The notes below the pieces were generated by a model that made no database searches, was not told the origin of the DNA, and saw only the letters and a program-made list of their open reading frames with translations. A stretch of DNA of 64,000 bases from Macrostomum lignano (taxonomy: Eukaryota): positions 310,001 to 374,000 of the forward strand of contig NIVC01000272.1 in NCBI GenBank assembly GCA_002269645.1, written 5' to 3'. This document shows positions 39,721 to 64,000 of the stretch, piece after piece; positions within the stretch are counted from its first letter, which is position 1; each line of letters opens with the position of its first letter. The position numbers and the translations under genes were made by a program.

Positions 39721-42320
39721 CGAAGTCGAAGGCAGAGCAGAGCATCTGTAATCCTATTGCCATCCGATACAGATACAGGAGTAAAAATGTTGTTTGGTTT
39801 TGGTTGGACAGATAAATGAACATTCTAGCTCGAAGCAGACTTATCCCGAAGCCGAATCTAATTCCTTAGAACCTTGAGCACACGAAAAAAGTATGAATTT
39901 TCACTTATCAGGGTCCGCCACGAAAAGCAGAAGACCAATTTCAAGCACGTCCTATCTTTTACCCGTCCTAGCTTTTCTGCCCTAATAGACGAATTGAAAA
40001 ACGTAGGGTGGAGTCATGTGCACATTTACGAACTCAGCCATCAGCCAACAGACGCAACACCAACCCCAAGCCCCCCCCCACTCGGAAGAGGGGCCGCGGA
40101 AACGAGGCTCTTCGGCCTTGACAAGGTCTTGAAACCCAGAACGGAAGCCTTGGGCCTGTACAGAAAACTGAGCCTCTCTCTTCTCTCTCTCTCCTTGTCT
40201 CCCTCTCCCTCTCGGCCAATCTGGATTGCCCACACATGCCCGGGTGTCCAGCAACCCCTGTGCATGCACAAGCGGCGTTCTATAATATATCAGCACACGC
40301 GCTGCTCGACAGTCTTGTCGTCTCTCCCTCGCCATGGCTTTTACGAGCTAGACGGGCTGGAATTCTTTAAATTCTACGGCTCTGTTTGGTGAGTTTAAAC
40401 GCACAGCTGGTTATCGTTGATGCTTCGGCATTGACAGCAACTAGCGCTATAAATTAAAAACAACATTTCAATTTGTGTGGATTCATTTTAATGTCTTTAA
40501 TTTCATAGATTTATGGATAATAACTTTGCACTAGAACCATTTTTTGTACTGGTAGAGTAATATATTTTTAATTACCTAAGTATAAAAATGACTAGCCTTA
40601 AACTAAAGGCAGTTGTTATTGATACAGTCGATGACCGTATAAATCACAGAATAGTGTTTAATAGTAAAACGGTTATTTTTACGAGACCAAGCTCTGAGTA
40701 AAACAAGTTAAGCACCTTGGGGCCGAAACAAACCACTTTTTACGGTTTTAACGCTAAACTTGCGGGTTACGTTGGTTGAGTTCGAGCGATCGAGCGGGGG
40801 AGGTCAGTTTTTGAGTCTTTCCACTGCACTTCCGCACACATCGGATCGCGCATCCACTCTTCGGTTCCCACGCCCTTCGGGATTGATTGCCAGATTTGGG
40901 TTTGGGGGCTGTGAATTTGTCATATGCTGCTATGGGTCAACTGTTGTTTGCCCGCATTCGGCCTTCTACTATCTTATCTGTCTTATGTGTCTTTCCTCTG
41001 CCTATACTGATAATTCTTTGCTTCGTCCAGCTTAAACGCGTCTCGAAAGAACTTCCTATGCTAGTGAATTTCCGAGCCCTCTATAATTGCCCCCATTTTA
41101 ATACCCTCCTTATCGGTTCTAGCTTAACTCGCAAATTACAACGGAGATAGCGGTTGGCGCACGTGTTCGTCTGATAACACAAAGAAACTGTAAAACAAAA
41201 GCTCAGCTGTTCGAAGACAGGTCTTTTCCAAGATCCGAGGTAGCGCCGCTCGGGACCGAAAATCTTTATCCGCGTTTTTCTCTGGGGCCTTTGATGTAAG
41301 ACTTCTCTCTCGGGCCTCGGTTATGCTTCTCTCTCGTAGTCGTCTAGCGGTCTTGTTGGATTACTTTCGCGTCTTTGAAGCCTAAGAGAGCTTACAACAA
41401 GGAGATCGCTACTTTGGCTGATTCTGACTCGTGCCTGTAGCACAAATAACGAATATGAATCTCTAGATTTATTGGCGAATTGCACAAGGCTTCTAGTTCG
41501 GAAGCTTAACTCTTTCCTTCTAGGTGCCCATTTCGGGGCCGAGGCCGTGTCTATTTTATAGATCATTTGATACACGTCATCCCCCGCCGCTGATTAGCAA
41601 CGGCGGGGTGCCAAAACAGACGCAGCAACATTAGATTAGCGCGTTGCTACGGGGCGAGAGAGATAATCTGCTATCGGTTAATTGGTCGCATCAGGCGATG
41701 GTTAAAGGTCAGTTCAGGGTTCATCGTTCGAGTCGATTCGCACGTCAGACCCCTCGTGCGTCCCTCGGTGAGTCGTCCTCTTATTCCCTGGGGTCGTTCG
41801 TCACCGCTGACCTTGGCCTGTTGACCATTGCTTTATCTCGCCCGCCAGTCGGGCTTTGTGTCGTATTGCTTCTCCTGGCACCGCGCCGACTGGCTCAGCC
41901 TGGTACCTCGGCCGATTTGATATCATCTGGTTTTAGTCTGAAATCTTGGGGGAAAGTCAGAGTTAGTTTCTTATCTATAGCTTGTTTCACTTTCTTGCCG
42001 TTCTTTAATTTCTCTCACTTAGGTGTCTTATCTTTAAATTGAACTTTCGCCCCTTGCTTTTTTTGCTTCTTACTTTGCCCTTTAGCGAACTCTTATTTGT
42101 CCCAACTTTCATAATTTCTAATCCCTATATTATTCCCCCTTTTTGAAATCCTTGTGCAACGAGGATTAATCTCCTGAATCTGAAATAAAATTGCGTAAGA
42201 ATATGAACGATATAGGGTTAGAAATTAAATTTAGCCAAGTGATTAATTAATTATTAAGGTAATAATTGATAGTGCTGTGAAGTATGTCAGTTAGTTAATT
42301 TGTTGCAGCGTCGTCTTCAT

Positions 42321-42644
42321 TCATTCCTCATCCGGGGGCGCTCCGTTGGGGTTTCCCCAGACGAAGCGGCGATGCGTTTGTAGCGTAGGCCAATTGGTAG
42401 CAGGAGTGGGGGCGTAGTCGCCCCCGGGCCACTCACCTCGGGGGAGTTTTATGACGCCCCCTTCGGGGTCCGAAGTCCCCACTGCTACAGAGCGTCCCCC
42501 GTCGAGGTTTTCTGGAGTTACTTGTGTCTGGGCGTCCGCTTTGTAGCATGGTTGCCCCTGTACAGAGACATCTCTGAAGCGGAGGCCTGGTTGCCTTTGA
42601 TATGCATCAAGGGCCGTGTAGGGGCGCCATCCGCGGCCGGCCAT
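42321..42644 (-). CDS. Gypsy accessory ORF107 (unknown function), copy A1
   Basis: Intact 107-aa ATG ORF; homologs at 50723, 55954 and 60146. Confidence 0.8.
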   Translation of the reverse strand: MAGRGWRPYTALDAYQRQPGLRFRDVSVQGQPCYKADAQTQVTPENLDGGRSVAVGTSDPEGGVIKLPRGEWPGGDYAPTPATNWPTLQTHRRFVWGNPNGAPPDEE

Positions 42645-42936
42645 TACGCTGGAATGATTTTTTCTAAGTTAGATTCTGTGTGGCAATGTACAGCCTGAAC
42701 TATTTTAATGTACGCTAGTGGATTTCAGGGGCCTCCGCTGTTGTTGTTTATCGCCCTTTCCCTCTTGGGGGGGGGTTTGGGGTCCGCGGGCCGATCGATT
42801 TTTTATTAGGGGGGGTTCCCTCCACTGTGGCTGGTATAAGTTTTAATTGAGAGGGGGTCCCCGGCGCTGGCAAGTGTTGGATATAGAATTTGACTGCTTA
42901 TACTGTCTACGCTTTTACGGGATTGACGTTGGCACT

Positions 42937-43176
42937 ATGTCGCAGCATGCTGTGGAGCAATTGTCTAGCTTACTCTCAAGGATGGATCGGCGCTTATCGG
43001 CCGTGGAGGAGCACGTGAGGGAGCTATCCCATCAAGCTCTAGCGACGGATTCTGGGCTCCGAGCGCTCCGAGGTGTGCTGGGCGGAGTGGGCGGAAGCGG
43101 ATTTCTCCTGCTCATTGTCTGCGTTTTAATTGTGGCGTTTTGCTGCCGGTACCGCTATCGGCCCCTATCTGCTTAA
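42937..43176 (+). CDS. Antisense 79-aa coiled-coil / GGVGG / TM / Cys-basic small protein, copy A1
   Basis: ATG at 42937; homologs at 51334 and 60796. Confidence 0.8.
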   Translation: MSQHAVEQLSSLLSRMDRRLSAVEEHVRELSHQALATDSGLRALRGVLGGVGGSGFLLLIVCVLIVAFCCRYRYRPLSA

Positions 43177-43509
43177 TATGGGAACCTGCCAGTGAATTAA
43201 GTAACTATTATGCGAAAGGATTGACGAAAACATTTTTTATTGTGGAAATATATAAGCATTTTTAGTATTTGTTCTATTTAACTTTTATTTTTAAAAACTG
43301 CCGTATGCTACAGGTCTAAGCTATGATTTATTATGCGCAGAATCATGCGTGCGAACTAATGTTACTTTATACTACAAGCCATATGCGTGCTACTTTCTGG
43401 TGTTTCTGTCCATCTTTGATAGCACTACTACGTTATACTACTACTGTGTACGAATAATCAAAAATAAATTGTCAGGTGAAGCGTGAATTTGTCCGCTTAA
43501 TTGTTAAAT

Positions 43510-43972
43510 TTGGATTCCACATAGCTCTGATGTACTGGCAGAAGGGATCCTCCTTCTGTGCGTCCTTCAGTGCCTGGAGGCATGGTATTGGATGCTTGAT
43601 TGTGACATAGCTGATTGTCTGCCTCTGGTCTTCGTACAGCCTTGATAATGCATCCGGTACTGCGTGTTTGACCGAATCTCCGGGCACGTACTCAATTTGT
43701 ATCTGAAATTGCTGAAGGTATAGCAGCCATCTGAGAATCTGGTTACTGTGGAGAATTTTCCCGGTGAGCAGTCCTCTAAGCGGGGCGTGGTCTACTCGCA
43801 GTAGCGTGGGTATTTGTGCCGCGTATAGAAACTGTTCGAATGCTTTGAACGCATGGTATACTGCTAGAAGCTCTAAATTAGTGATAGCGGATCTCGTTTC
43901 GGCATCCCGCAGCTGCCTACTGGTGAAAGCTATCGGTCTTTCTTTCCCTTCTTCATCTATCTGTGACAGCAT
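43510..43972 (-). pseudogene. Gypsy pol RNase H fragment
   Basis: RPIAFTSRQL...ELLAVYHAFKAFEQFL...VDHAPL...RWLLYLQQF.IQIEYVPG...DALSR. Confidence 0.92.
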
Positions 43973-44329
43973 GGTTTCCTATATTATTCCCCTTTTTGAA
44001 ATCCTTGTGCAACGAGGATTATTCTCCTGGGTCTGAAATGAAATAGTTATAAATGTAGTTACAAATGTAAGTATAGTGTATGTATAGTGTAGTTATCTTA
44101 TACGACACACTAACCAACACTAGCGCTCTCCTAAAAGAAATATTGAATGCAAAGTCCAATTCTTCCTTAGCCTTGGCCATTTATCTCTGCAAAGTATATT
44201 TGACTGAATTCGCCGCAAGTCCATACGCATTAAAAACGAGTAAGCAAATTACCGCAATCTAATACGCAGATAATTCATCGCGAAAGAACGCAAACGATTG
44301 TAACAGCGCTTAAACAGATTCTCTGCGCC

Positions 44330-44645
44330 ACCACCACTAATCATGCTCGCTAGAAAATCCTTCAAACCACCACCACGATGCAGTTTAAAGTATAAATAAA
44401 CAAAACCCATAATTCACAGTGCAGCCTTGGTTCTTGAATAGCAAAACGCGAATATTCCCCATTTCCCCCTCCACAATTCCATATAAACCGACGTATTAAC
44501 TCACACGGATTTAACCCCAAGGAATCGAAATACCCCCCTTCCTAGAGCCCCTCCTACCCAACATAAAACCCCTCACCCATAACAAAACCCAATGAGAACC
44601 CGGCAAATTTAAAGTATCGGTATTCACGATCAGAAAATAATGCTT
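44330..44645 (-). pseudogene. Adenain-like cysteine protease fragment (Polinton PRO), frameshifted
   Basis: Manual translation: FLIVNTDTLNLPGSHWVLL / YFDSLGLNP / AIQEP...ILYFKLHRGGGLKDFL. Confidence 0.75.
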
Positions 44646-45240
44646 CCATTAAATGCAGTATTTTCGACTACCACCAGCAAAAGACGTGGCACTCCGCTCG
44701 GAAACAGATTTTCGTGCGTATGGCTCAACGACCCTTGCGGCATTGTGAACGTACCCAATGATAAATTGCGATGAGGGTACAAGGCACTATGGGTGTTACA
44801 GTTAAAGAACACGAAGGCACTTGGGTTTATGAATTGAAAGAGGGCGTTGTTTGAGCAGCTCCAAATTGGCATGAGCACGAAGCTCGCCCTTATATTTCTT
44901 TACCCTTAAGGGAATTGAAGTTTCTAGCAAACAAGGTGTACGGTAACATTTTGCCCCTATGGCACGTAGACTACTTTTAGAAGAAAATAAATATATAAAT
45001 AATGCAGCATAGCATGCAGCATATGCAACAATGGGTCTTCAAACCATGTGCATGGGCTCCAATCACACTGGCAGATGGCTGAACATACCGCAAACGAAGC
45101 TCCGCACTCTGAATCTCAACCTCGTAATCCTTTAACACTGCCTCACCAATCTGTGCGGCACTTAACACGAATTTGCTCTTTGCCGGTAGTAGCTTTATCC
45201 GCAAAGGCGTCTTTGACAACAAATACCGTGGCCCTGACAC
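44645..45240 (-). pseudogene. Polinton major capsid protein internal fragment, split by a solo LTR
   Basis: PRYLL...LRIKL...YEVEIQSAELRLRYV.PS..VIGAHAHGLKTH + SALYP...FTMPQG...ENLF...PRLLLVVVENTAFNGS. Confidence 0.8.
44794..45030. mobile_element. 237 bp solo LTR
   Basis: TGTTACA...TGCAACA termini; 5-bp TSD ATGGG (44789-44793, 45031-45035); removing it restores the capsid reading. Confidence 0.9.
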
Positions 45241-45244
45241 GTTC

Positions 45245-45510
45245 ATAACACGGGACACCAGTTTCGCGGCCAAACGTCCCCCCCACTTAGTTGTAGGATC
45301 CGTAGCAATCTCTCGAGCTCTTGCTACGAGTTGTTGATCGGCCTTTTACGCTCTGCCACGTCCGAGTGCTTCTCGTATGCCAGGTCGTGTAAGAGACACA
45401 ACTTATCGAGCCGATTCTTCCCAGTATCGCCCCGCGCCAAACGTTCTCTCAATCTGGTCTCGTGGCCGCAGAATTGGTAACCCCCCGGCAAATGAAGCTC
45501 CCCTGGGAGA
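45245..45510 (-). pseudogene. Parvovirus VP1u-type phospholipase A2 domain protein (Polinton/adintovirus PLA2), frameshifted
   Basis: ELHLPGGYQFCGH.TRLRERLARGD...NRLD..C..HDLAY, then ADQQL after a frameshift. Confidence 0.85.
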
Positions 45511-45699
45511 TGGTAAGCGCACTCGCTTCTTCTTCTGTCGGCCTTGTGTTCCCACCCCACTTAATTGTACTAAAAAAACAAACTGCATTTGCTTATACAC
45601 ACAGCGGTTAAATCCACGAGCAGTATATTGTATTAAAAACCACCACCAATTCCCACCACCGACCGACGGGCTCCGGGCGCGAGCAGCATCAGATGTTAG

Positions 45700-46194
45700 T
45701 GCTGCCCATGCCGCCCGTCTCGCGAACCGCCACCGGCTCCGGTTGTCGTGCCACACCCCCGGCAGCTGGCCCTCGCGAACTCGACCGACTTCTACCGGGG
45801 GCGTGACGCAGCGCTCCAGAATCAGTTGAACCACGCTGGTGGCACACAGTAGATAAACTTTCTCATCTGACGTGTTGTGCAGGATCACGCGGAGTTCCCC
45901 GGTATAGTTCGGGTCAACCACGCCACCGTGCACATTGAGGCCTGGGTTGGCCCAACTGGACCGGCTCGCTATCCGACCATAGGTGCCCGGCGGCAGCATC
46001 ACCCGGAGGCCGGTGCAAATAATGGCTGTGTCAAAGGCCTCCACAGTGCGGTCTTCGCACGTGGCTAGGTCATAGCCCACCGACCCGGCCGTAGCTCGCC
46101 GAGGCATCACTGCCCCGGCATCCGTGAGCACTATGCGCCGCAGGACCGTCGTGCAAGCGTCGGAGCTCATCGTGGCTGCGGGATCATAGTTCAT
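45700..46194 (-). pseudogene. dut: dUTPase with disrupted motif 5
   Basis: AGSVGYDL, TGLRVMLPPGTYGRIASRSS, GVVDPNYTGEL; the C-terminal RGxxGFGS motif is out of frame/degenerate. Confidence 0.88.
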
Positions 46195-46438
46195 CTTATG
46201 CTTAGCAGGACCGTCGTCCTCTAAAATAAGTCTAGTACTACCTTCGTAATCCACGTCCCAATAAAAAAAACTAAGCCTAGTACTAATCCCCTGCACTGCT
46301 ATCATTTGCCTAGAAAAACGAAAAAATACGAAGAGAAAAAAAGAAAGACGGATTCTTGCATATACATTCGATAATTGCGCGCATATATTGTGAGCAGAAA
46401 AACATAAACAGACAGAAAATAAAGACAGAGAAAACAAG

Positions 46439-48022
46439 TCAAGTCAACCGCCAATGACCAAATAGGAGGGATGAGTAGGGATCGTGCCAGGCTCGCTTCG
46501 TTTCGAAAAAGCTAAGCGCCTGCTTGCGCTGCTCAAGAAGATAAATCATCTGTCGTCGCGAGGTAATCGTCCGCATCGTTACAGGCCCCAAAACTCGATC
46601 CTTCAACACACCCAAAAATACATTGTGCTTCATACCTCTTACAATCGACTTCGACACGCCCTTGCAACGCACAATCTGACAGAGGCTTTCCTTTGCATAC
46701 ACCATTGAATAGTTTTTCGGACGTAGAAATGCAAACTCCAACGGTGTACAACCGGAAACTTCATCTTTCCAGGCCATTAACTTCCCTTTATACTTTGTTG
46801 TATAAAGCGGATGAGAAGGTGGATAATTACTAGTGTCTAACACACCGCACTCCACCAAGTCTTTAAATAATGTCTCCTGAGGACTCGTCTCCGGGTCGGC
46901 CATAACCAATGCCAGGATCAAACTATCCGTATCTCCACCAAGCACGCGGGCAGAAGCAAGCGACCGATGGCATTGAATCCTTGAATAGAAAAACTCGTAG
47001 ACAAATGTTTTCGCAAGGTCCAGAATAGCGCTACCAATCAGAATTGGCTTGTTTAGCAATACTCGACGAGGAGTCAAACTCACGCCCGCTAGACGATCTG
47101 TATACAGAATCACGTCCATAAATTCCTCTTTAGCGAAATACGTTTCCAACTTCTCGGCAGTAGTACACATGCGATAGCTGAGTCGGTCTCGAACTCGCTG
47201 CAGAAACTTGCCGTACACAGCATTGTTCAATAGTTTAAAGAAATCTCGATCGAAATCGCTAGTCGCCTCAGACCGCGGACGAATATTATGTTCAATGTAT
47301 TCCTGTAGGATGGGACCTTCTACGAATTCGAGAACACGATTAATACGCGTCACGCACATGCCTAACTCGAGGTAAAGACGCAATGCTCGATGATGTACAA
47401 TGTACCCTGTTTTATGCGTAAAAGAGCCAATTAGTTTCCTTGTCGGAGAAGTGAATCGTTTTACGTCCTCGTATACCTCCGCAGTCCTCTTCCTTGGATC
47501 AAGCTGGCGTTGCAGACAAACCCAATCCTGCTTCATATGCTCGATTAAATAGGCACTATCAATTCTTTCATGGCCAATAGCCAGAGGTAGATCGGCAGTT
47601 GAATCGTGCAAAAACTTTGGGTAGTACAGATCGACATTCAATAACGTCCCTCGTCCATTCGAGCAATAGCTAGACAACCAAGCCAAAAACTTGCTCGACT
47701 TGTTCGGATTTTCCAACTCAGCTGCCTCATCATCAACTGATAGATTTTCAATCACTTTACGGGGCAACCAACGATAGGCCTTATACGGTAGTGCCTGCGC
47801 CATACAACTGGCATAAAGAGAATTAGCATCAAGGTAGGCCAAGTGAGTGCCATACGGTGCATTCCGCCGTAGTTCTCTTAAATCGTCGTCGTCGTCGTCC
47901 AGCCGACGACGGCATTCTTCTACCATTGGATTGTTTGCCGTAGTAAGATGGCGAGTGCCGAAACTGAATCCACCTCGAATCGAAGCTTCAACCTCGGAGT
48001 ACATACGAGCGTCTGTAAACAA
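46439..48022 (-). pseudogene. polB: Family B DNA polymerase of Polinton type, C-terminal half
   Basis: SIRGG, YLDANSLY, FFKLLNNAVYGK, GGDTDSL, KDE and RPKNYS...KGV motifs; truncated at the LTR C terminus at 48024. Confidence 0.93.
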
Positions 48023-48023
48023 C

Positions 48024-49735
48024 TGAAGAGTTGATTCGGGAGGTGATCAGTCTCCCGAAAACTCCCACTTCCAGACACTTAAGCCTGGGAACAAAATAAA
48101 GTGATCACTTACTGTTGCGGGCTCCTCTTCTGTGTAGTGCGGGTTCTCCGAGCTCGTTTCTTCAAATCCTCTTCTTCTCCGGAGGAATCTTCTTGAAGTC
48201 TTGAATCGGCCGAATGAGAGCGTGACGATCAAATCAGGCGACGTCGCAGTATTTCTCGAATGCAAATCAATATAGGCCTTAAGCTCAGTAATCAATATCA
48301 ACGATGCGCCTTGTAATAAAATCTACTTTCTGTAACAACAACGAGGTCCTCCAAGAAGGGCGTCTTCTTCTAGAAATAACGGAATCGGAGTCGTGTGCTC
48401 CTATCGGTTAATCTAGGATAACCAAAATCAATCAATCGATAATCCTCTAGGGGTATCGGAATCGGTCCGCAGATCCTATCCAATCCCTTAGGAAAATGGG
48501 AGGCCTCAAATTCAATGAACTCAGTCAAATCGACTGGACAGTAGCGGCCGGCAATAAATCGCTCTCAAAATCAATAACAAAGGCTCAAGCAACGGCTCAC
48601 CAATTGGTTTACTTTTCTCTCAGAGATGTAGCCTCGCTTAGCTGTTCCAGCAAGCTCCAAGATCTTTAGAGGCTGCTCCGAGTCTGAGATTTTTAGCTCG
48701 GATTTTGGCTTGTATTTATAGGAAAAATTGTTGAGAGACAGCTTATTTTTAGTAGGTGACAGTTTCGCGCTTTGGAAATTTGACCCCTATGGAATACATT
48801 AGCTTTGAGCGCCGATACCATATTCGGAGTTCTAAATTTAAATGTTGCAAAAGATGGTCACTTGTTGTTTTCGTGGTCTTTAAAAATAGAGTATGACAAT
48901 TTGCAATTTTTGTAACATTCGAGTTTTTCGCATCTTCATGTTGCTACTTATAGTAGTCTACTTTGTATCTTATTTGGAGATCTCTACAATATCTCCCTTT
49001 TTTACGAAAAATTCGTCCCGAATTTATCACGGGTGATTTTAGTTGTACATGAAGAATTAAACAGGTCCACGGTTTATAAGAATTTAATACTTATTGTTTA
49101 TTTGCGAAGTTACTGTGTATATGCAGATTAAACATGGTGGCCAGCACGATATAGTGTATTCTGTAACAGCACAGTAATGAGAATAGTGACCGAGCAATAA
49201 GAAAAACAGTAATTTATTGTTTTTATCTACAATCGTGTTGGAGCCTATGGGGTATGGGGACTGGGGTTAGAGATGTTCGGCTAGGAACGGTGGAAGAGTC
49301 TTTGCACCCTGACCGTTAATACTGCTATGGGGTAAATGAGGAATTGGAGTTGGTGGTGGTCGTGGGATTCGGCGGCTTCTAATAGGTGATAGTAGACATC
49401 TTGTGGGGTTAATAGGGTTTCGGTCAGGGTGCAGCGCCGGGCCGTTTGCAGGAGACTCCGCCGTGCTTCATGTAGTTTGGTCGGTAGTGGCCAGTCTTGT
49501 ACGTTGGCGGAGATCTCCAGGGCGGTGAGGGCTTCGAGATCGTGGAGTGTGAGCTCCGGTTGGAAGTCCTCCCGTCGGACGATTTCTGCGGCCGGCGCTT
49601 CCAAGGAATTTGTACAGGTTGGGCAGTATGTTATGCCCCGCCGCCCCAGCCTCTGCAGGCAGCTAAAACAGCTCCAGTGCCTGGAGTTGCACAGCTTTAT
49701 TTGCGGGTCGTCCCCTCAGAGGCTGCATGTAGGTC
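48024..49735 (-). mobile_element. Gypsy-like lineage C, copy 1: RING ORF remnant, PPT, 965 bp LTR (48024-48988)
   Basis: TGTAGAG...CTCTTCA termini on the minus strand; PPT AAAAAAGGGAGA; TATAAATA at 48713-48720; same ends at 56442-56806. Confidence 0.8.
49281..49730 (-). pseudogene. 5'-truncated RING-family accessory gene of lineage C
   Basis: In-frame upstream PQIKLCNSRHWSCFSC...CPTC, plus a C-terminal domain homologous to the ORFs at 57077 and 58016. Confidence 0.8.
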
Positions 49736-50722: not shown

Positions 50723-51046
50723 TCAGTTGTTATTTGGGGGTGCTTTGTTGGGGTTGCGCCAGACGAACATGCGGTGCGTCTGGAGCGTTGGCCATTCGTA
50801 GTCTGGGGCGGGGACGTAGTCGCCCCCAGGCCATTCTCTTCTGGGGAGTCTAATGACTCCCCCTTCGGGGTCCGATGTTCCAGCGGCCACTGAGCGTCCC
50901 CCATCAATAATTTCCGGAGTCGCCTGGGTTTGGGCGTCTGCCTTGTAACAGGGCCGCCCATGTATGTTGACGTCAGTAAAACGGGTGCCTGGTCGCCTCT
51001 GATAAGCATCGAGTGCTGTATAGGCACGCCACCCGTGGTCAGCCAT
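50723..51046 (-). CDS. Gypsy accessory ORF107, copy A2
   Basis: Intact 107 aa, ~75% identical to copy A1. Confidence 0.8.
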   Translation of the reverse strand: MADHGWRAYTALDAYQRRPGTRFTDVNIHGRPCYKADAQTQATPEIIDGGRSVAAGTSDPEGGVIRLPRREWPGGDYVPAPDYEWPTLQTHRMFVWRNPNKAPPNNN

Positions 51047-51333
51047 TGTGCTGGAATGATTTTTAACTGTATTGGTTCTTATTTGGCAATGTACATCCTT
51101 AGCTACAATGTACGCGGTTGGGTTTTACGGGCCTTCGCTGAGGTTGTTTACCGCTCTTGCCCCTACTGGGGGTTTTGGGGTCCGCGGACTGATCGATTTT
51201 TTATTAGGGGGGTTCCCTCCACTGGGACTGATATAAGTTTTAATTGAGAGGGAGTCCCCGGCGCTGGCGAGTGTTGGATATAGAATTTGACTGCTTATAC
51301 TGTCTACGCTTTTACGGGATTGACGTTGGCACT

Positions 51334-52259: not shown

Positions 52260-54344
52260 TCACGGAAGGTGGGTCTTGCTCCTTAGGTTGTATTTCTTCC
52301 TGGCCGTGTCCGCCGGCGCTCCATCTTCTACTTGGATGCCGACATCCATCGAGAACTTCTGTTTCTGCTGTCTTTGCAGGCGGTTGGGATCACACGGCCG
52401 GAGGTCGGGGAGGAAGACTTGCGCTTCTGGTGAGGCCACCGGTTTCAGCCTGTCCACATGTACCTGGAAGGCTGTTTGCGGTGGTTCATCTGTCTTTTTT
52501 ATCAGCACCGAAGTGGCACTGTTACATTTAACCACCTCGTATGGTCCAGAAAATTTAGATTGATGTTTTGCTTGTCTCATTGGATTTTGGAGCATTATCC
52601 TGCTTCCTACTGTTATCGTGGTCGGAACTCTTCTGTTGTTTGCCCTTGTTGTGTTTTTCTTTTGAGCTTCTTGTAGGTGGTGACGGGCTATTTCTCTGGC
52701 TAGGGTTATAGCCTCTTGCATTCGTTCCGCGTATGCGGGTTCGTCTGCGTATCGTACGAATTGCAGTTGTGTTGTTAATTCTGTGGGCATTAGTGGCTTC
52801 CGGGCGAACACTAACTCGAATGGTGAGTATTTAGAGGACGCTTGTTTGGCTGTGTTTTAAGCGTGGATTATAGCTTGTAGGTATTGGTGCCAATTGTGAG
52901 GGTTCTCCGCCGTGTAATGTCGTAGCATATTGTGGAGAGTGGAGTGAAGGCGTTCCACATGGTTTGCTCGAGGGTTGTAAGGTGACGTTAGAATGTGCTG
53001 TATCCCTAGAATATTTAGGGCATCTGTGAGTAGTGTCGCCGTGAAATTGGTGATGTTATCCGTTGAGAGTTCTACGGGTATCCCGAAGGTACAGAACACT
53101 TGGAAGAGTGTTTCGGCCGTGGTTTCGGCTTTCAAGTCCGGTATTGGGAACGCTAAGGCAAACTTGGAGAAGCAGCACGAAACGGTTAAAAATGTGTTAC
53201 CGACTCGTTCCTTATCCTCGCCGGTGTCATAGGGCCGACCAGATCCACTGACAGTTTGTCCATCGGTTTTAGTGGTATCTCCGACATCTGAATGAGGCCT
53301 TGATGCATCCTGCCGGACTTGCTTTTGGCACAGTCCATACAGTTGTCGCAGAATGCTTGTATATCTCGGACCATGGAGATCCAGAAGTAATGTCGCCGGA
53401 TCCTCTCCAAGGTCTTCTTGACATCTAGATGTGCGGCCAAGGGTAGGGCGTGCAGTGAGTAGCAAATTGTGTCGCGATATTTAAATGGCAGTACTATCTG
53501 CTGCGTTTTTTCTGCCGTTCTGTGGATAATGCCCAGAATTTCAGCATGATCTGTTAGGTGCCGTTCAATATGGCGCTTCTATTTTGAGTCCAAATCTTCT
53601 CCGCCAGGTTGCTCGTTCCACATAGCTCTGATGTACTGGCAGAATGGATCCTCCTTCTGTGCGTCCTTCAGTGCCTGGAGGCATGGTATTGGATGCTTGA
53701 TTGTGTCGGTTTGGCAAATTTGCATTTCAGCAACCTGAGTTTCATTCCGTGCTTAGTGAGTGCTGATAGCGTGTCTTTTATCGTGTTGAGGTGGTCTTCA
53801 AAGGTCTCATTAAACACTAATAGGTCGTCCACGTAGGTGGAGACTCAATGTATGCCCTGTAAGATTATGCTGACTGCCCTTGATAGCGCCGCAGGCGAAG
53901 ATTGTAACCCCATGGGTGCTCTAGTGAACACATAGGTTTGTCCATCCGGGGTTTAGATGCCGCAGTATTTCTGGCTTTCCTCCTCTAGGGCTACTTGGAA
54001 GAATGCTTGGGCCATATCCAACGTGGTGAAGTACATGGAGCCTTTGAGCTTAGCTAGCAGGTCGGGGATTCTGGGCATGGACTGTCTTTCAGGCACTAGA
54101 ATATAATGAGGTCCCTAAAGTCGACGCAGAGACGGTAAACAGGGTTAGCATTGGGCGATTCTGCTTTCTTTTTTACCAGTAAGATTGGCGAGATGTATGG
54201 AGTTGCCGCTTTCTTTATTATCCCTTGGGCTTCCATCCTATCGATGGTTTTCTGTAGTTCTCCCATTAATTGGTATGGGATGGGATATCTTTTGTAAAGC
54301 TTTATCTCTATGTTGGGCTTGATGTGTAGCTCGTGTTTCGCCAC
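52260..54344 (-). pseudogene. Gypsy pol (RT and integrase) with stops, frameshifts and an RNase H deletion at ~53703
   Basis: Motifs as listed for copy A2; ends RKKYNLRSKTHLP, no chromodomain seen. Confidence 0.9.
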
Positions 54345-54349
54345 TTCTT

Positions 54350-56441
54350 TTTATTAGATTCGGATATTTAAAGTGACTTGACAGTTGATCACTTATCTTA
54401 AAGCTGCTTCTGTCTGCCCTTCTAATAGCTATCTAGGGGTTCCATTGTTCTTTTCTGCCTCGCCCTTCAATGCGCCTGGGCATTTCATAAATTTATAGCT
54501 ATCTTCTAACTTAGGGCAAAAGTTCAGATTTCTAACTCATATGATTGCCCCTTTTTTGAAATCCTTGTGCTAACAAGAATTTGGTTCCTCTAGGCGGTGA
54601 CTAAGGCGTGGTGCCAGTTCCTATTTCATCAAATATAAGCAGTTAAAAATCTGCAAAGGGTATACGCGCTGTCTCTGGGGCCTTTGAGTTTTTGTTCTCA
54701 CTTTCGTAAGATAGATGTCTTGCGGTCTAAGGTTTGTATAGCTCTAACTTCTTCAATCAGGCCGTCGGAGAAAACCGTATAAACTGACGGGATCTCCTAG
54801 TATCTAAGCTGAGTTTGACTCTTTCTAGGATTTGCTCTGCGCGACAATTAAGACAAATAACTGTATTAAAGACTTAGATTTGTGCCAACTGGATAATCCA
54901 GAGACTAATTCAAAGGGAGCAATTCGAGATCGAAAATGCGCAAGAAAAACGAAGCGCCGGTCCAGTTTGAGATGGGCGTCTATTTATACCAATTAGCATT
55001 TTTGGCCCCCCCGCCGCCGGTGATGTGTCTCGCGAGGTTAGCAACGGCGGGGAGTTTTAAGCAATAACAATCTGGGACTCAGTCCCCTAGTTGTACATGG
55101 ATTTAGTTAGTTCTAGTAGGTTGCTAAGTGTGAAGGTTGGAGATTATTCGGGGTTTCGCAAATCTATGTGTTGAGTTGGATAAAATCTAGGATAGAAAGG
55201 TTATATAAAACGAGCTTAATTTTCCGTCTCTTAACTCTGTCCATGGATGATTAAACAGCCCTCTCTCTCTCCCTCGGTTGTCAACTACTTCGGGTTGATC
55301 TCGCCTTCTTCGGCCTCTTCAGGTTGGATTGGAGTCCGTGGGTGGGCCGCACATTTTCCTCCCTCTGGGTGCGCCAGAAATCTGCTGCGTGCCGCGTGCT
55401 GCGTTGTTCCCTAAGTCGGGCTGCTACTTAATTTACTTCTCCGGCCGGTTTGAGTGCCGTTGTTCCTGCGGCGGGGTGTTGCTGCTCACTGGAATGGGAG
55501 GGGCTTAATTAGAATCGGTCCTTCTTATTTGTCTTGATTTATTGCCTTATTGCTGCTTCTGTTTGCCCTTCTAATAGCTATCTATGGGTACCATTGTGCT
55601 CTTCTGCCTCGCCCTTTGCTGCGCCTGGACTTTTCATAAATTTCTATCTATCTACTAACTTAAGGTAAAACTTCAGATTTCTAACTCTAATATAATTCCC
55701 CCTTTTTTTCGAAATCCTTGTGCGAACAAGGATTTGGGTTCTTTATGCTGGGACTAAATCGCGTTGCCGGTGCGTATTTCATCAAATATAAGAGGTTAGA
55801 AATCTGCAAAAGGTAGTGAACGTTGCATTAGGGGTAGAAGAGGATGTGCTAGATAAGTGGTTGTGTCAGAGGATGGGTATTCTTCGAGCAAAAGTTTCAA
55901 GCGTATAGTTTGTTTTGTATATGTTGCGCCGAGGCCATTTAGTACTATTGATATTAGTCCTTGACCGGGCGGTCGCCTATCTTCCATAGATATAGGCGGT
56001 AGCCCTGCGGTGAGGGCCGTGGCCTAATGGTGACGGCGGCCTCATACGGGCCCCCGTCTCATGGAGTCTTTCTTGGGGCCAGGATCACCCCCCAGTCGTT
56101 ATAGTCGGCGGCCGTTTGTTTAGCCATGGAGTGGCCGCCATCGATATCGTACTCGGCGACCTGTGTTTGTGCGTCTTTCTTGACGCACTTCCGAAGGTGG
56201 AGGTCTCCGTCCACAAAAGCCTGGCCAGGTCGCCGGGTGTAAGCCTTTTCTGGTGTGTAGGCGGCCATCTTCTTTGTGCGGAGTGTGTGCTGGAAAGAAA
56301 TAAGCGAGAGTATTCATTGATTATCGCGTCTGGGGGTTTGGCGTGTGTTCTCAGCTGCCCATCGTATTCCTTAGTGGGACTACTGTACATTGGTTCTATC
56401 CTCTGCGTACATGGGGTAGCGGGTGCGGCGGAACGTGCGGG
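54350..56441 (-). mobile_element. Gypsy lineage B pieces: ORF107 region, PPT, LTR (~54661-55690), second PPT and partial LTR (54350-54660)
   Basis: Homologous to 58880-60640; TATAAATA at 54981-54988. Confidence 0.8.
55954..56268 (-). pseudogene. ORF107 homolog B1 with one in-frame TGA (Trp to stop)
   Basis: Reads through as ...RKTP*DGGPYEAAVTIRPRPSPQGYRLYLWK. Confidence 0.8.
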
Positions 56442-57076
56442 TGAAGAGTTTGATCGGGTGGTGATCAGTCACCCGAAAACTTCCACTTTCAGACACTTAA
56501 GCCTGGGAAGCCTCAAAACCGTTTTTTATGAGTTCACGAAAGGAATTTTATTATTTGACAGGTGGGGTTTTTGAATAGAAAAGGGTGAGACTTGGGTTAC
56601 ATTCAGGTTAACATTTACCATATTTGGAAGTTCTAAAAATAGATGTCGAGAACCGGTTTTTTCGAACAATAGCATAGTCACTCGCTGTTTGCGTGATATG
56701 ACTGGTATTACTAAAAATAGAGTATGACACATAGCTATTTTTAAATTTGTGTTCATAATTTTATGTTACTACTTTTAGTAGGCTACTGTGTTTGGAGATC
56801 TCTACAGTATCTCCCTTTTTTACGAAAAATTCGTCTCGAATTTCAATCGAAATTAAGTAAAAGCGGACAGAGGTTTTCATTTATTGCAGTGGCAAGTAAG
56901 TATAGAACGTACAGAACAATGAAAAGTGGTGATGAGTATATAGTCGTAGATATAGTAGAGGTTAAGTAAGGTAGTGTACAGAACACGCAAGAGGCACTAA
57001 ACAAGAATAAGCAAGAGCAATAATTAGTGAAGTCAATACGTCGCAGAATAGAAGCAGTACATAACGAGTGCGGTAG

Positions 57077-57676
57077 TTAGGCAATGAAAATGTCGTCAAG
57101 AACGGATTTCAGCCGTATTATCAACGCCGCCAGAGGCCCAAACATGATCTGCAGTGGAGTATATGCAGTGGACTCGGTGCGGTTCAGGATGGCGAGGTAG
57201 GCCTCCATCTCGGTCGTAATTGTCGCATCTAGTAGTACGTCCCGGCCGATCCTGAGCATATCGTCCCGGGCCCTGGCTTGGGCCATCGTAACGGGCCATG
57301 ACTTGATGGCGCGCGCCAATTCCGGCGTAGTCAGTCGCGGGATAGAGTCAGCATCGAGCCATAGAGCAGGCTCATACGGGATCGTGGCCGTAATGGCAGT
57401 GGTGGTCGAAAGAAAATTCCAACCAAATTGAACACAGTAGCCGATAGCCCGACAAGCCAGACTGCGCAAGCAGCTGTTGCAGACCCAATGGCCGTCGGAG
57501 CACAACTTCACCTGCGGTAGCCGTCCACACAGGACACACCACACTCTGTCCCGTCGACATATGGAGCAATGTTGGAGTTCCTCCCTGGCGGCGCAGGTAC
57601 GGCAGGCCATATGGCCCCAGGCGCAGGTGGAGACCATGGCGTGGGCCGGATCAAGGCAAATAGGGCACTCAGACAT
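57077..57676 (-). CDS. Double RING-like zinc finger protein (199 aa), putative E3 ligase
   Basis: CPIC...CAWGHMACRTC...CSIC and CVLC...CSDGHWVCNSC. Confidence 0.8.
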   Translation of the reverse strand: MSECPICLDPAHAMVSTCAWGHMACRTCAAREELQHCSICRRDRVWCVLCGRLPQVKLCSDGHWVCNSCLRSLACRAIGYCVQFGWNFLSTTTAITATIPYEPALWLDADSIPRLTTPELARAIKSWPVTMAQARARDDMLRIGRDVLLDATITTEMEAYLAILNRTESTAYTPLQIMFGPLAALIIRLKSVLDDIFIA

Positions 57677-58015
57677 GATGATATAAATAGAGGCAAAAGC
57701 AAAACAATGGAAGATGGAACTCTTAGGAATTACAGAAAGATGTGTGAAGGCATAAATCGTAAGTGAATTTCGCGTGTATATATATATGGATACGTATCGC
57801 GTTTTAATTGGCTTGTAGTCACTAAGTTTTAATTGGTGAAAAATAGCGCATTCTCTTCTTGGGCCGGCCTGTGTTGGTCTCGAATATTGTTCGGGGTTGG
57901 CAGGTAGTAGGATGGTATGTTAGAAGAAGACGTAAGTGTAAGCATTTAAATTTTATGGAGCTATGTTCCTAGTATACTAAGGTTTTAATTGTGAGCGTCC
58001 GATTTGTTGTGTTAG

Positions 58016-58600
58016 TTAGAATATGTCGCGTGTCAGTTCTCGTGTTTTTTGTGTGGGGCGTGCCATGGGCCATATCAGATGTTGTATTGCCACGTATTCC
58101 GTGCATTCTGTCGCATAGAGGAAGTCAAGGTAGATTTCCTCGGTTGTGGTGTTGTCCGGGTGTATGACACAATGGCGCATTAGGTCGAACAAATACTCTC
58201 TGTGTTTCTGACGGTTGAACGGTATCGGCCATGTTTTTATTGTCAGTGCTAGCGCCCGTGCGGTCATGTGGTCCATAGCTTCTTTAGTTAGCTGTATCGT
58301 CGGCAGGTCGTCTCGTGTTTGGTCCCAGAATTCCGTCGTGATGGGTGTCGCACAAGTGATGCAATTTGGACTGTTGGTACGCCGGATATTGTTTGCACAT
58401 TCGCGGCACACCCAATGTTGATTGTGGCATAGTTTTATTTGAGGTGTCGTGGCACATACTTGGCACCGGGTGGCTGGCGCTCGACATAACGGGAATTTAT
58501 CGATCGCATCTGTCGTACAGCAGTGATAGCAAAATTGATGGCCGTTATGACAGTAAACGAATGGCTCGATGTCCTCTTCGCAGCAGACGATACATTCCAT
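58016..58600 (-). CDS. Double RING-like zinc finger protein (194 aa), putative E3 ligase
   Basis: CIVC...CHNGHQFCYHC and CQVC...CHNQHWVCREC...CITC. Confidence 0.8.
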   Translation of the reverse strand: MECIVCCEEDIEPFVYCHNGHQFCYHCCTTDAIDKFPLCRAPATRCQVCATTPQIKLCHNQHWVCRECANNIRRTNSPNCITCATPITTEFWDQTRDDLPTIQLTKEAMDHMTARALALTIKTWPIPFNRQKHREYLFDLMRHCVIHPDNTTTEEIYLDFLYATECTEYVAIQHLIWPMARPTQKTRELTRDIF

Positions 58601-60145
58601 AACTGCAATTTTAGGAGCATTATAATTATATCGCCTTATAAGATATAATTATAATTATATCTTCATCGTACATATCGCCCTGCCAATTTGTCAATTCACT
58701 GTGCTTTAATAACATAGTTAGATCCGCATGTCGCTTAATAAGTATGGGGAGTACAGCGCAATGAAATGGGAGGCATGGTAATTCGCATGTTGATAGGTAT
58801 CGTAAAAGACGTTGCTGACGACGTTTTAACGGGAAGAGTATTAATTGGTGTCTATTATGATGTGCGTACTATATGCGTCTTTCTCTGGGGCTATACGCGT
58901 CTTCCTCTGGGGCCTTTGAGTTCGTGTTCTCACTTTCCTAAGATAGATGTCTAGCGGTCTAAGGTTCTTACAGCTCTTAGTCTCTCCTATCAGGCCGTCA
59001 AAGGAGACCGTATAAACTGACGGGATCTCCTAGTATCTAATCTGAGTTGGAGTCTCTCTAAAATTTGCTCTATGTCACAGTTAAGGCAAATAATCGATTT
59101 GAGACTCGGATTTCTGCCAACTGGATAATCCAGAAACTAATTCAAATGGAGCAATTCAAGATCGAAAAACTGCGCAGGAAAAACGAAGCGCCGCTCCAGT
59201 TTGAGATGAGCGTCTATTTGTACCAATTAGCATTTTTGGCCTCCCCGCCGCCGGTGGGGTGTCTTCGCTTTGTTAGCAACGGCGGGGGGTTTTGAGCAAT
59301 AACAAACTGGGACTCGGTCCCCTAATTGTACATGAATTTAGTTAGTTCTAATAGGTTGCTAAGTGTGAAGGTTAGAGATTATTCGGGCTTTCGCAAATCT
59401 ATGTGTTGAGTTGTATAAAATTTGGGATAGAAAGATTATAGAAAAAGTGCTTAGTTTTCCGTCTCTAAACTCTGTCCATGAATGATTAAACAGTTCTCTG
59501 TTTCTCTCGGTTGTCAGGCAGCTTGGGGTTGATCTCGCCTTCTTGGGCAGCTTCGGGTTGGGTAGGAGTCTCTAAGTGGGCCTTACGTTTTCTCCCTCAG
59601 GGTGCGCCAGAAGATGCCGCGTGCCGCGTTGTTCTCTAAGTCAGGCCGCTGCTCAGTTTGCTTTTCCCGGCCGGTTTAGTCGCCATTGTGCCTGCGGCGG
59701 GGTGACGCTACTAACTGGAATGGAAATAGGCTTTATTAGATTCGGCTATTTACATTGACTTGACAGTTGATTAATTATCTTAAAGCTGCTTCTGTTTGCT
59801 CTTCTAATAGCTATCTAGGGGTTCCATTGTACTCTTCTGCCTCGCCCTTCACTGCGCCTGGGCTTTTCATAAATTTCTACCTATATTCTAACTTAGGGTC
59901 AAAACTTCAGATTTTTAACTCTTATATGATTCCCCTTTTTTCAAAATCCTTGTGCTAACAAGGATTTGATCAATCGACATCAGGGCTAAACGACATTGCA
60001 GGTACTTAAATTATCAAATATAAGACTTTAAAAATCTGTAGACGAGTCAAACGTCTCGGGACGTAGATAGTTAAAGGTGTAAAGAGGCGAAACCTGGGAA
60101 ATTAATTGAGGGAAAACAGTTCACAGTCGTATCTAGGAGCCGCAT

Positions 60146-60466
60146 TTAGTCATCTTCAAATTGAACGTTGCCGCTTCTGGCCCATAGATACTGACGATAT
60201 CCCTGCAGTGTGGGCCAGGGTCGAATGGTAATGGAGGCCTTGTAGTCGCCTCCCCTCCACGGTATCTCCGTGGGGGTCAACTCGCGTCCCCACTAGGCGT
60301 CGTTGTCAACGGTTTGGGTGGCCACTGAATGGCCCCCATCTATGTCACTCTCGGCGACCTGTGTTTGCGCATCCTTTTTGATGCACTTGTGGACGTGGAG
60401 ATTTACGTCCACAAAGGCTTCGCCGGGTCGCCGGGCATAAGCTTCTTTGGGTGAGTAAGTGGCCAT
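60146..60466 (-). pseudogene. ORF107 homolog B2 with one in-frame TAG
   Basis: MATYSPKEAYARRPGEAFVD...KKDAQTQVAESDIDGGHSVATQTVDNDA*WG...PWRGGDY...WPTLQGYRQYLW (manual translation; absent from the ORF track). Confidence 0.8.
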
Positions 60467-60795
60467 GGGAATGCTCTGAAATTAAGCAAGAGTGTGCTAT
60501 TGATTTTCCGTGTGGCGGTTTTAGCGTGTATCGTCCTTGGCCCAAAGCTTCGCTTAGCGGTTCGGCTGTACATTAGATCTATCCCCTGCGTACATGGGGT
60601 GGTGGGTGGGCGAGGCGCGCGGGGTGAGGTTTTAAAATCTGAAGTTGGGGTCCCGCTCGCTCCTAACGAAAGAGGGGGCTCTTTCTTTCCGCGGCTGGTG
60701 ATGGTTCCTTTTCTATTTAAACTCCGGCGCAAGGGAGTGGGGCCCTCCGGTGAACTATTCAATCGATTCTTGTCCCGCGACTATACTGCTCAATA

Positions 60796-61059
60796 ATGTC
60801 TGAATTCACGGTAAGGCGCTTGATGCGTCTAGTTAACGATCTAAAGGAGCGGTTCCGGGCCGTGGAGGGCCGCTCTGTGAGCCTGGAACACCGCCTCCTT
60901 CATCTCGAAGCTCGAGTGGCTGCTCAGGGTGGCGGTTTGGATACTCTTCGCAGCTGGCTGGGCGGAGTTGGGGGCAGCGGCCTTCTACTGTTTCTGGTGC
61001 TGGTATTAGTGCTGTTCTGCTATCTGCGTCGCCAACGCTACCAGGGCCTACCTGCCTAG
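60796..61059 (+). CDS. Antisense 87-aa coiled-coil/TM small protein, lineage B
   Basis: Shares LGGVGGSG-TM-FC-basic tail and position with the lineage A copies. Confidence 0.8.
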   Translation: MSEFTVRRLMRLVNDLKERFRAVEGRSVSLEHRLLHLEARVAAQGGGLDTLRSWLGGVGGSGLLLFLVLVLVLFCYLRRQRYQGLPA

Positions 61060-62094
61060 TAAGTGAAGTGATTTCATAAGACTATTGGATAACAATATAT
61101 TCAGGGATTCTATTTTGTATGTCATAAATATGACTATCAGCCGGCTAAAATAAGTGTCGGAGGGCGTGGAATATCACGGCGTTGAGAGTAAAGCGTAAAG
61201 CGTCTAGTTAGTAGATAAAATTCGGGTACAAAAATTATCAGGATAAGCAATATTTGCGGATACAGTTTGTTTCCAGGTTAATGTGGTTAGTGTTAGATTA
61301 TATAGCGTTGTAGCTGGCTTCAAAAAATTCACTTTCGTTTGGTCTAGTCTTGTCTCAAGAATAGGCCGCCCTGCTGTGAGGCTGCATTGAACAAAGGAGC
61401 GTACCTGTGGGTGAAGGTGCCTCAGGGATGAGGCGAATTAGTATCTCACCAATTCGCTACAACCCGAGAGCAGGGGTTCATCCCTTGTATTATCCTTTTT
61501 GTTCCCTTGCAACCGGGCCTTCCTAGCACCTCAAGGGTCCAGGTTGGGGCCTTCTGCTGCTTTCAACGCTGTGAAAAGGTGGTGCCATTGTAGGTTGGCC
61601 GGTGAATACGCAATCGTGGCTATCGATTGCTGTTCTTTGGGTTTGATTTCGATGCCGGTATACGCTCGTAATTTAAGGTGTTAAGTAGATAAGTGATAAG
61701 CATGTCGGCTTGGAGTGATAGTGTGCTGGTCGGTCCACGAGGATGGATTAGGGTTGTCGTCACCCTGCTATTCCATACTATGATACGGAAACAAGAGAAC
61801 GCATCTGTGTCGTCGTAGAGGAAGAAGAGCGTGGTGTTGAAGTTCAAGATAGAATAGTCAGAGAGTAGCCAGCGTGGGTATTTAGGATCTGATAGGATGC
61901 GTCGCGTAGTGAGGTGTGTGACGATGTTAGTGGGTATTAGTGGCATGTCAAGCATCTGCTGGTGAATGTCAAACAGTTTCATTTCATCATATCGCGCCGG
62001 CTTGCTTTGAACTACCGTCTGTGCCGCCAGAGCGGTTTGGAATCGCTCTGCGAGTGTTTTAGCCTGGTGGAAATCGTTGCTCGCCGATGTTGTA

Positions 62095-63350
62095 ATGCTT
62101 AAGGCACAAGCGGCAGATGGTAACAGCCTCGTGATGATTATTCAACTGCTTGTGAATGAGTCTTGAAAGATATCTAATCCAAACATAGTGAGCCTCCTCT
62201 AGTAAATTACCAATCACTAGAATATCGACCTCAGTCCGCCTTTTCCCCTCAGGATCTAAAACGTCTTTGCTACATCTGACCGGTTGAACTATCTCAGTTT
62301 TTTCACTCCACTTAAAGACTGTGATTCTAATTTTACATTAGTTAGTTCGTTAGTTATTAAACGTTTCTTCTAGCTTTGGGATCTGAGAGATCGCCAAGCC
62401 TCCTTTGTCAAACCTGATTCCCTTCTTTTCGCATTCGATGAGATAGTACGAGCTAGTTGAAATAATTCTGATAATTTGTGGTTCTTTCAAGGTGGTGAGG
62501 GACACTACCATGAAGAAGTGCAGAAATAACTGCCCATAAAGCACAACAATTGTCTTTATTTTTAACATTTATGCAAGCTTTTTTGCCGGCTAGCTTTTGC
62601 GGGAGCTCTATATAAGACGAGGCTTTAAGTGGGTCATATTTCATGACCATGACAGTCGCTCTTTGAATCCCACGACCCATCCGGAACCTCTGGATGTAAA
62701 CGCTTCAATTTTCTTAGTGACATCTTGAACGAAAGGATCCAGTGTGTCTGTAGGGGTGAATGGCTTTGCCTTTGTTGTCATGTAATACTCGAGATGCTCA
62801 GTGGGTTTTGCAGGCATATAAAACGCAATCTTGAATGATATCTGTAGTTTAAAGGCCTTGCGGGTTTTGACTGTGTGATCAACAACTGATTGGATGCTGT
62901 CTTTATAGTCGTAGGTGTTTGCGGTGGTGCCGTTGGTGTCAGTAATTTGGTTGGTGTCGTTAATTGGGATTGTGTACTCTATATAATGTTCTGTAAACTT
63001 CCTCTGTGACAATTTAATCTCTTCAGTTGCAAGCTCCGACTCTTTTAAATGGATTAATTGCTCTAATTTCTCTTGTTCCTGCTTATTTTGTGGGTACTTT
63101 GCTTTTTCACCAGTGAGAGTTTCGTATTTGTTAACTAAGTTGCGACTCCTCTCTTGGTGTTCCTTCTCAGGATTTTTTATAGGCGCATACTGGTTCGATT
63201 TCCAACTGTTTTTCATAGCTTCCCAGGTGACCAGGGTCGGTTTTAAACTTTTGTTTACATGCTTCTCTTAGTAAATTACTTTTGTCTTGAAATGAGACGC
63301 CTTTTGAAAAATATTTTTTGACTAAATCTTTTGCTGGATTGGCTTTTGGC
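62095..63350 (-). pseudogene. polB: Polinton polB N-terminal region, with stops and frameshifts
   Basis: IEAFTSRGSGW, YDPLKASSYIELP...KKACINVKNKDNCC..WA, HYVWIRYLSRL...ICRLCL. Confidence 0.85.
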
Positions 63351-63620
63351 ATTTTTTTCTCTAAAATAAAAACATTTTTGAGGGTGACCACCCTGATAGA
63401 AAAGTTGAACTGTTTCTCCATCTTATAAGTAGCGTTAGGTTTATGAAGCTGGAAATTAAACCTCATAACATTCACATTCACATTCACATCCGCAATTTTG
63501 CAAACCAAGCATTGTGCAGTGTCATGATGGCTTTGACAATGTCAGACTTGCTTACAGAATTTTCATGCTCACAATAATCACGATCATCACAATCAGGACA
63601 GCCCTCTCCTGCCTTAATTG

Positions 63621-63938
63621 TTATACCTTTGTCTCTTGCAATCTTTGCAATTCAAGCTGGTGGGCTCTATCATTCCCAGCTTTAACAGCAGTTGCTACAC
63701 CTCCAGCTACACCACCTGCGGCACTTACAGCGCCTGAAATGATCGGGATAAGAGCTGCTAATGGTAGGATTCCTCCTGACTTTTCATCTGTGATGCTGTG
63801 TCTTTGCTCATTACACTGAACTATTTGCCGCATGGGATCGATTTTAACTTTGACACCTTTAACTGATATAAGACCTGGTTTCTTTGATTCAATGATTTTA
63901 TTGAGTTTATTGATGGTTCTGGTTTAAACCGATGTCAT
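63621..63938 (-). pseudogene. Adenovirus pX/mu-like small core protein of a Polinton/adintovirus
   Basis: KSGGILPLAALIPIISGAVSAAGGVAGG resembles adenoviral pX (RGG.LP.LIP.I); premature TAA near the upstream ATG. Confidence 0.65.
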
Positions 63939-64000
63939 TTTTTATTTTAATATTTTAATTAATTTCTGTGTCGGCTGGTATCACTAGGAGTTCAGCTCTA

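Follow-up and report, generated by a model that had tools for sequence, protein, structure and literature searches.

Antisense-oriented gypsy and Polinton pieces behind a shared leader in Macrostomum lignano: a probable flamenco-like unistrand piRNA cluster

The window analyzed here is a stretch of 64,000 nucleotides (contig NIVC01000272.1, here C272, positions 310001-374000) from the 764-Mb genome of the flatworm Macrostomum lignano; coordinates are those of the window unless a contig is named. From 41.3 to 64 kb it contains a block of approximately 13 transposon pieces from three gypsy families (A, B, and C) and two Polinton families, all of them in minus orientation. The pieces and their orientation were established by Pfam matches, self-BLAST, and comparison with dispersed copies of the same families in the genome. 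The Pfam domains found in the block (RNase H, integrase, reverse transcriptase (RT), dUTPase, DNA polymerase B (PolB), RING, and an adenovirus protein X-like domain) are likewise all on the minus strand. An earlier note on this DNA had described about ten pieces of three gypsy lineages and Polinton DNA, every one on the minus strand, and this description is borne out by the mapping. A 340-bp leader on the plus strand precedes the block. Taken together with its relatives elsewhere in the genome, the block is probably a flamenco-like unistrand cluster for PIWI-interacting RNAs (piRNAs), transcribed from a promoter in the leader (probability about 0.7); its piRNA output is inferred. The features are listed below (LTR, long terminal repeat; PPT, polypurine tract; ORF, open reading frame; C2421, a sister contig).

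35710 to 36530, plus strand: truncated KY-like (transglutaminase-like) gene, identified by tblastn to paralogs
39918 to 40075, plus strand: conserved box upstream of the leader and part of the same module; in the C254/C1157 group its orientation is opposite to that of the leader
40221 to 40560, plus strand: 340-bp leader, with a TATA-like motif near 40281 and a GTGAGT splice-donor-like motif at 40389
41267 to 41294, minus strand: 28 bp left from the end of an LTR-B that runs on in C2421
41295 to 43978, minus strand: gypsy A copy 1, with 3' LTR (41295-42129), PPT, 3' accessory region, RNase H, and a 1.7-kb deletion at 43515
42847 to 43176, plus strand: native antisense ORF of gypsy A, with homologues at 51244-51573 and 60754-61059
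43979 to 44093, minus strand: what is left, on the PPT side, of a third gypsy A copy
44094 to 48023, minus strand: Polinton-1 piece, with an inverted-repeat end, phospholipase A2 (PLA2)-like remnant, dUTPase, C-terminal third of PolB, and a deletion of about 5.2 kb
48024 to 49727, minus strand: gypsy C, with 3' LTR (48024-48988, ends TG..CA), PPT, and RING-type ORF
49728 to 54350, minus strand: gypsy A copy 2, with 3' LTR (49728-50563), accessory region, integrase, part of RT, and a 0.83-kb deletion near 53700
54351 to 56441, minus strand: gypsy B, with an LTR inner end (54350-54542), then a 3' LTR (54661-55692) and 3' internal region
56442 to 58869, minus strand: gypsy C, with a deleted 3' LTR and tandem RING-finger ORFs
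58870 to 62100, minus strand: gypsy B, with a 22-bp LTR-end duplication at 58870, 3' LTR (58892-59926), and 3' accessory ORFs
62101 to 64000, minus strand: Polinton-2 piece, with an adenovirus protein X-like ORF; integrase lies just beyond the window

A PPT adjoins all seven LTR pieces that keep an inner end, and no primer binding site (PBS) was found before any of the six precise LTR outer ends in the block; therefore only 3' LTRs survive. Four gag queries gave no match between 41.3 and 64 kb, and the lack of gag and of a recognizable PBS reported in the earlier note thus holds. The note had also described the pieces as joined by abrupt deletions. Blunt internal deletions do exist (at 43515, ~53700, 45232, and 45512, with no clear microhomology at these four joins), but many of the joins are precise LTR termini (41295, 48024, 49728, 54661, 56442, and 58892). 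A plus-strand transcript would not be antisense to every element gene as had been suggested, since the three small plus-strand ORFs starting at 42847, 51244, and 60754 are native to families A and B. These ORFs of about 80 codons are conserved in the 3' region of both families, and their products are predicted to contain a coiled coil and a membrane segment. A single composite mobile unit was rejected as an explanation of the block, as dispersed copies match single families and not the joins.

The position given to the block earlier was 41275-64000, but the downstream end lies past 64000: the minus bias persists for approximately 55 kb downstream, with a single plus element, a young Polinton. 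Past the window, B, C, DIRS, and further gypsy pieces were found, all minus apart from this Polinton, and the run ends with a nearly complete LTR-less C element near contig position 429.8 kb. Matches to the element library on C272 amount to 39.6 kb on the minus strand vs 8.5 kb on the plus strand, and all plus matches fall in the one Polinton, whose inverted ends are 99-99.9% identical. Only one library match was found in the 81 kb upstream of the block. Within the archive, family A recurs three times, B four or more times, and C many times. No Rfam families were found in 130.7 kb, and no tRNA was found in the window.

The leader sits in the single-copy-looking flank of the block. Three genome searches returned the same closed set of approximately 20 copies in seven locus groups. 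GTGAGT is present on the plus strand in 12 of 12 aligned copies, and in most of them a TATA-like motif lies ~110 bp ahead of it. From these motifs the leader is predicted to be a promoter with a first exon. Its direction was set from sequence alone. Contigs C863, C3508, and C3509 end too soon behind the leader to be informative. C254 and C1157 have upstream genes in common and differ in their antisense contents.

Further analysis revealed that the leader predicts orientation elsewhere. In the regions of up to 30 kb behind 11 other leader copies, 40 of the 42 merged transposon pieces are antisense. After removal of six shared or double-counted pieces and one spurious match, 33 of 35 remain antisense (p = 4e-8), and an antisense majority was found in all six other locus groups (p = 0.03, counting each group once). 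The bias spans gypsy, non-LTR RT, mariner, Pif1-type, and Polinton matches. Part of the query library was drawn from the same leader regions, its members being picked by Pfam match irrespective of strand. Five genes located within inverted repeats or on either strand, as well as a Harbinger-like element that codes on both strands, were excluded before the counts. Moreover, transposon density jumps behind the leader, with 42 pieces in 304 kb downstream vs 2 in ~112 kb upstream (outside C393). At other leaders the nearest sense pieces lie 18, 24, and 28 kb downstream, and at that of C272 more than 30 kb; two of the sense exceptions are very young, namely the C272 Polinton already mentioned and a C1405 element with LTRs 99.9% identical. 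If the leader were an integration hot spot, with elements nesting and insertion orientation fixed by mechanism, this would account for families A, B, and C having been captured repeatedly and for the precise LTR ends inside other elements. This is improbable, as the bias is common to unrelated element classes and sense insertions are among the youngest. The young sense insertions and their distance from leaders instead fit selection over oriented insertion.

Evidence of transcription comes from sequencing runs, available as assembled contigs without strand information. Of 24 runs listed, 20 contain the stretch 49728-59345, 13 of them with at least half of its sequence words; runs X1 and X2 contain 0.88 and 0.84 of the words, respectively. 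None of the runs containing the block is recorded as RNA; X1, X2, and X9 were identified as RNA because of GT-AG joints in the KY-like genes, while X19 looks like DNA. Dispersed relatives of the internal parts of the block are mostly 67-90% identical. At that distance they could not account for 84-88% of exact words, and it follows that transcription takes place at this locus or its sister. Over the upstream stretch, cover was found in 9, 21, and 15 of 30 bins for X1, X2, and X9 and in 29 for the DNA-like X19, and 34.7-35.7 kb has no cover in the three RNA runs; this gives a weak hint that the X1 cover of the block is not DNA carry-over.

The KY-like genes form a tandem array (31750-36530), the third member of which is truncated and lacks an exon start kept in C2421; a UniRef protein from M. 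lignano matches the ORF at 32821-34194 with 100% identity. The earlier note had offered the truncated gene at 35710-36530 as promoter, which would make the block a real piRNA archive fed by read-through transcription. Indeed, X9 contigs extend across 36.0-39.8 kb, and a spliced KY-like contig in X2 matches the C2421 copy and runs into an exon present only in C2421. However, searches with the gene return only copies from its own locus group, and leader copies at other loci head similar antisense archives. Since the leader heads seven locus groups and KY-like DNA is confined to one, the leader is the likely promoter of the block, and read-through from the KY-like gene is very improbable.

Insertions within mammalian transcription units show an antisense bias. 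By analogy, the leader could drive a long non-coding RNA or a giant first intron with no piRNA role, in which sense insertions cause termination or mis-splicing. The orientation, leader, and RNA data are also compatible with such a transcript, and AATAAA is scarcer on the plus strand (41 vs 61 on the minus strand, in 78.5 kb). On the other hand, no non-repeat exon common to different leader groups was seen downstream, the introns of a nearby host gene measure just 69-277 bp, and the density jump behind the leader is left unexplained. A transcript of this kind is unlikely, and a piRNA cluster headed by the leader is preferred.

Sister contigs indicate rapid turnover. C2421 is collinear with the upstream flank (~94-98% identity) and also with the dense unrelated tandem repeats, with units of 8-45 bp, that occupy positions 1-26100. 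In place of 41295-49727 it carries different co-oriented pieces, after which the next 8.7 kb is 99.84% identical. The LTR of gypsy A copy 2 (LTR-A2) differs between C272 and C2421 at 40 sites in the first 280 columns, and the left flanks differ too. C4009 parallels the downstream part, with indels. M. lignano is described as having three subgenomes ~2% apart and a reference with many chimeric scaffolds (PMC10733133, in part), and sister contigs may therefore be homoeologues, alleles, or redundant copies. The neopolyploid genome and its redundant and chimeric contigs (PMC10733133) lend some plausibility to an assembly chimera, or a tandem duplication of a few units, as the origin of the block. 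Nevertheless, this is hardly credible: the pieces match separate dispersed families, a sister contig with another arrangement has the join between an A piece and Polinton DNA at 98% identity, and 0.81-0.88 of the words are present in runs that come from several studies.

The families themselves were characterized from copies elsewhere. In element orientation LTR-A ends in TA..CA and LTR-B in TA..TA, instead of TG..CA, and both are flanked by 5-bp target duplications, which for solo LTR-A copies were present in three of three checked. Copies of LTR-A vary far more in the outer 280 bp, at the 3' end of the LTR (41295-41575), than in its middle, and a 700-bp stretch inside the PPT is also highly variable. 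Scoring of 40 of 67 LTR candidates gave no full-length family A element. For LTR-B there is a full-length match (C1405:256064-269953) whose LTRs are 99.9% identical. A pile at C1405:236000-280000 (L087-L089, L059-L061) contains B, C, and DIRS pieces, together with one young full-length B inserted oppositely. Solo LTR-C copies have 4-bp duplications at all five loci examined and are widespread, whereas internal sequence of family C is found mainly in co-oriented piles.

A fusion-glycoprotein-like ORF lies between gag and pol in family B, in family C, and in a relative on C1674. With PF24664 scores of 28.6 bits for B (cut-off 27), 38.5 bits for the C1674 relative, and 20 bits for C, families B and C are read as carrying an envelope gene of the glycoprotein B (gB) type, the score of C being below the cut-off. 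Flatworm Ty3/gypsy errantiviruses of GAG-ENV-POL order with a herpes simplex virus (HSV)/gB-type env have been described, and the supplement lists one M. lignano element (PMC13524379, in part); the order of genes is the same here. Family C differs in having three to four tandem RING-finger ORFs after integrase (49281-49715 and 57077-58868; L031:5919-8173; L034-L035), and the word RING is absent from the main text of that paper (PMC13524379). No relatives of the RING ORF were found at E<=0.001, and an Atlas search gave only weak leads to viral RING proteins (0.85 at best).

Polinton-1 is a young family with five other copies whose PolB is 97-98% identical, 44094-48023 being a deleted copy. An undeleted young relative on C1668 has 1588-bp inverted repeats that are 99.6% identical, rve and chromo matches, and a PolB 96% identical to the PF03175 ORF of the window. 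Through this copy, Polinton-1 displays the terminal inverted repeats, PolB, and integrase of Polinton/Maverick elements. The likeness to these (adintovirus-like) elements includes the protein-primed type of PolB and the PLA2-like and dUTPase genes, with the difference that the window holds deleted pieces only. Capsid and ATPase labels for Polinton-1 had no Pfam match and are interpretation only. The idea that its deletion removed opposite-strand genes was rejected, since the genes of the undeleted copy all point in one direction. Separately, a Polinton-like element (L032:100-L033:5950) has inverted ends several kb long that bear genes, and TBP-like and deoxynucleoside kinase genes; searches for integrase and capsid in it gave no match. 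An Eco47II-like restriction endonuclease ORF adjoins a Polinton integrase piece at L172:4845-5555.

In M. lignano, 436 piRNA clusters have been reported, some unidirectional and up to 93.7 kb long, and Macpiwi1 piRNAs are mostly antisense (PMC4604429, in part). The coordinates of Zhou et al. (2015) refer to another draft, so the block may or may not be among the 436, and the available passages contain no promoter or content analysis of the kind given here (PMC4604429). flamenco and flam-like clusters in Drosophila are likewise long and transposon-dense with a strong one-strand bias, start at a discrete promoter (here promoter and splicing are predicted from motifs), contain envelope-bearing gypsy elements, and turn over rapidly between copies, as set out in parts of PMC10643416 and PMC4120762. 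Sense copies found only far from the start, here at least 18 kb from the leader, have also been modelled for flamenco-like clusters (PMC10643416, in part). The present case differs in several respects. The host is a flatworm and not an insect, the bias includes Polintons, DIRS, non-LTR, and DNA elements where that of flam-like clusters is described as Gypsy-driven (PMC10643416; PMC4120762), one promoter module is common to about seven separate loci, unlike flamenco, and the piRNA output of the present cluster is a prediction. Within insects, piRNA defence against enveloped gypsy elements has been extended broadly (PMC13172572, in part), and a survey of M. lignano LTR families makes no mention of piRNAs in its available passages (PMC12801592). 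A literature search outside which most subscription journals fell returned no paper on a shared cluster promoter or this architecture in Macrostomum. Unidirectional clusters were already known in the species; the shared leader, the breadth of element classes under the bias, and the 3'-LTR pattern had no precedent in the literature searched.

On the proposed mechanism, the block would form the leading part of an archive ~80 kb long, filled with transposon pieces in antisense orientation. The leader would act as a promoter for RNA polymerase II, followed by a short first exon that stops at GTGAGT near 40389, and plus-strand transcription from this duplicated module (39.9-40.56 kb) would yield a transcript that is cut into piRNAs. 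Insertions would occur in both orientations, and sense copies near the leader would be purged because antisense copies yield useful piRNAs, whereas sense copies would disturb the precursor. The 3' LTR of a new insertion may then recombine with an LTR that an earlier insertion of that family left further along in the same orientation, deleting the intervening 5' halves and leaving precise LTR ends beside truncated neighbours. Near the front edge every recombination partner would lie downstream, which is proposed as the reason why 5' halves are lost. That no LTRs other than 3' LTRs survive suggests compaction by such LTR-LTR recombination. The 22-bp LTR-end duplication at 58870 fits this account, as does LTR-A2, whose outer 280 bp and flank differ between C272 and C2421 on common downstream DNA, although an assembly switch could give rise to the LTR-A2 difference. 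Copies of the leader would in turn seed independent archives with differing contents. A broader proposal, to which somewhat less than an even chance is given, is that promoter and first exon form a portable module of ~650 bp, each duplication of which founds a unistrand piRNA cluster, with at least seven archives compacted by a 3'-LTR ratchet.

The cluster-like reading of the earlier note gains support from the downstream bias, the presence of RNA, the known clusters of the species, and a leader that predicts antisense contents elsewhere; its KY-like promoter is not favoured. Several observations weigh against the reading. The LTR-A2 mosaic could be an assembly switch, since a redundant contig (C3101) is also 99.84% identical and the reference of the species has many chimeric scaffolds (PMC10733133, in part). 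Families recur many times here, while 49 of 52 families in flamenco are single-copy (PMC4120762, in part). Four held-out leader copies (C863, which is too short, and three others with mostly already-shared pieces) yielded only four new pieces, three antisense and one sense, and the single classified piece behind the held-out C870 copy is sense. The C1405 pile (236-280 kb) is co-oriented with no leader in the 119 kb scanned. Unclassified short repeats common to the leader loci are not co-oriented (281 of 855 matches on the same strand). Low-depth RNA contigs of X1, X2, and X9 map to 36-40 kb, ahead of the leader, and transcription could start further upstream; the role proposed for the leader is read from its motifs and position.

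Two general questions, namely the origin of unistrand piRNA clusters and the nature of the signal that directs their transcripts into processing, become testable with a short leader common to several loci, given that transgenesis works in M. lignano (PMC12801592, in part). The leader also provides a sequence handle for locating M. lignano clusters. The present reading would mean that a flatworm has comparable archives of envelope-bearing gypsy elements and Polintons. If the module is truly portable, each archive would trap its own enveloped retroelements, Polintons, and other transposons, clusters would arise through duplication of their promoter, and a defence of the flamenco kind, directed at enveloped elements, would exist outside insects.

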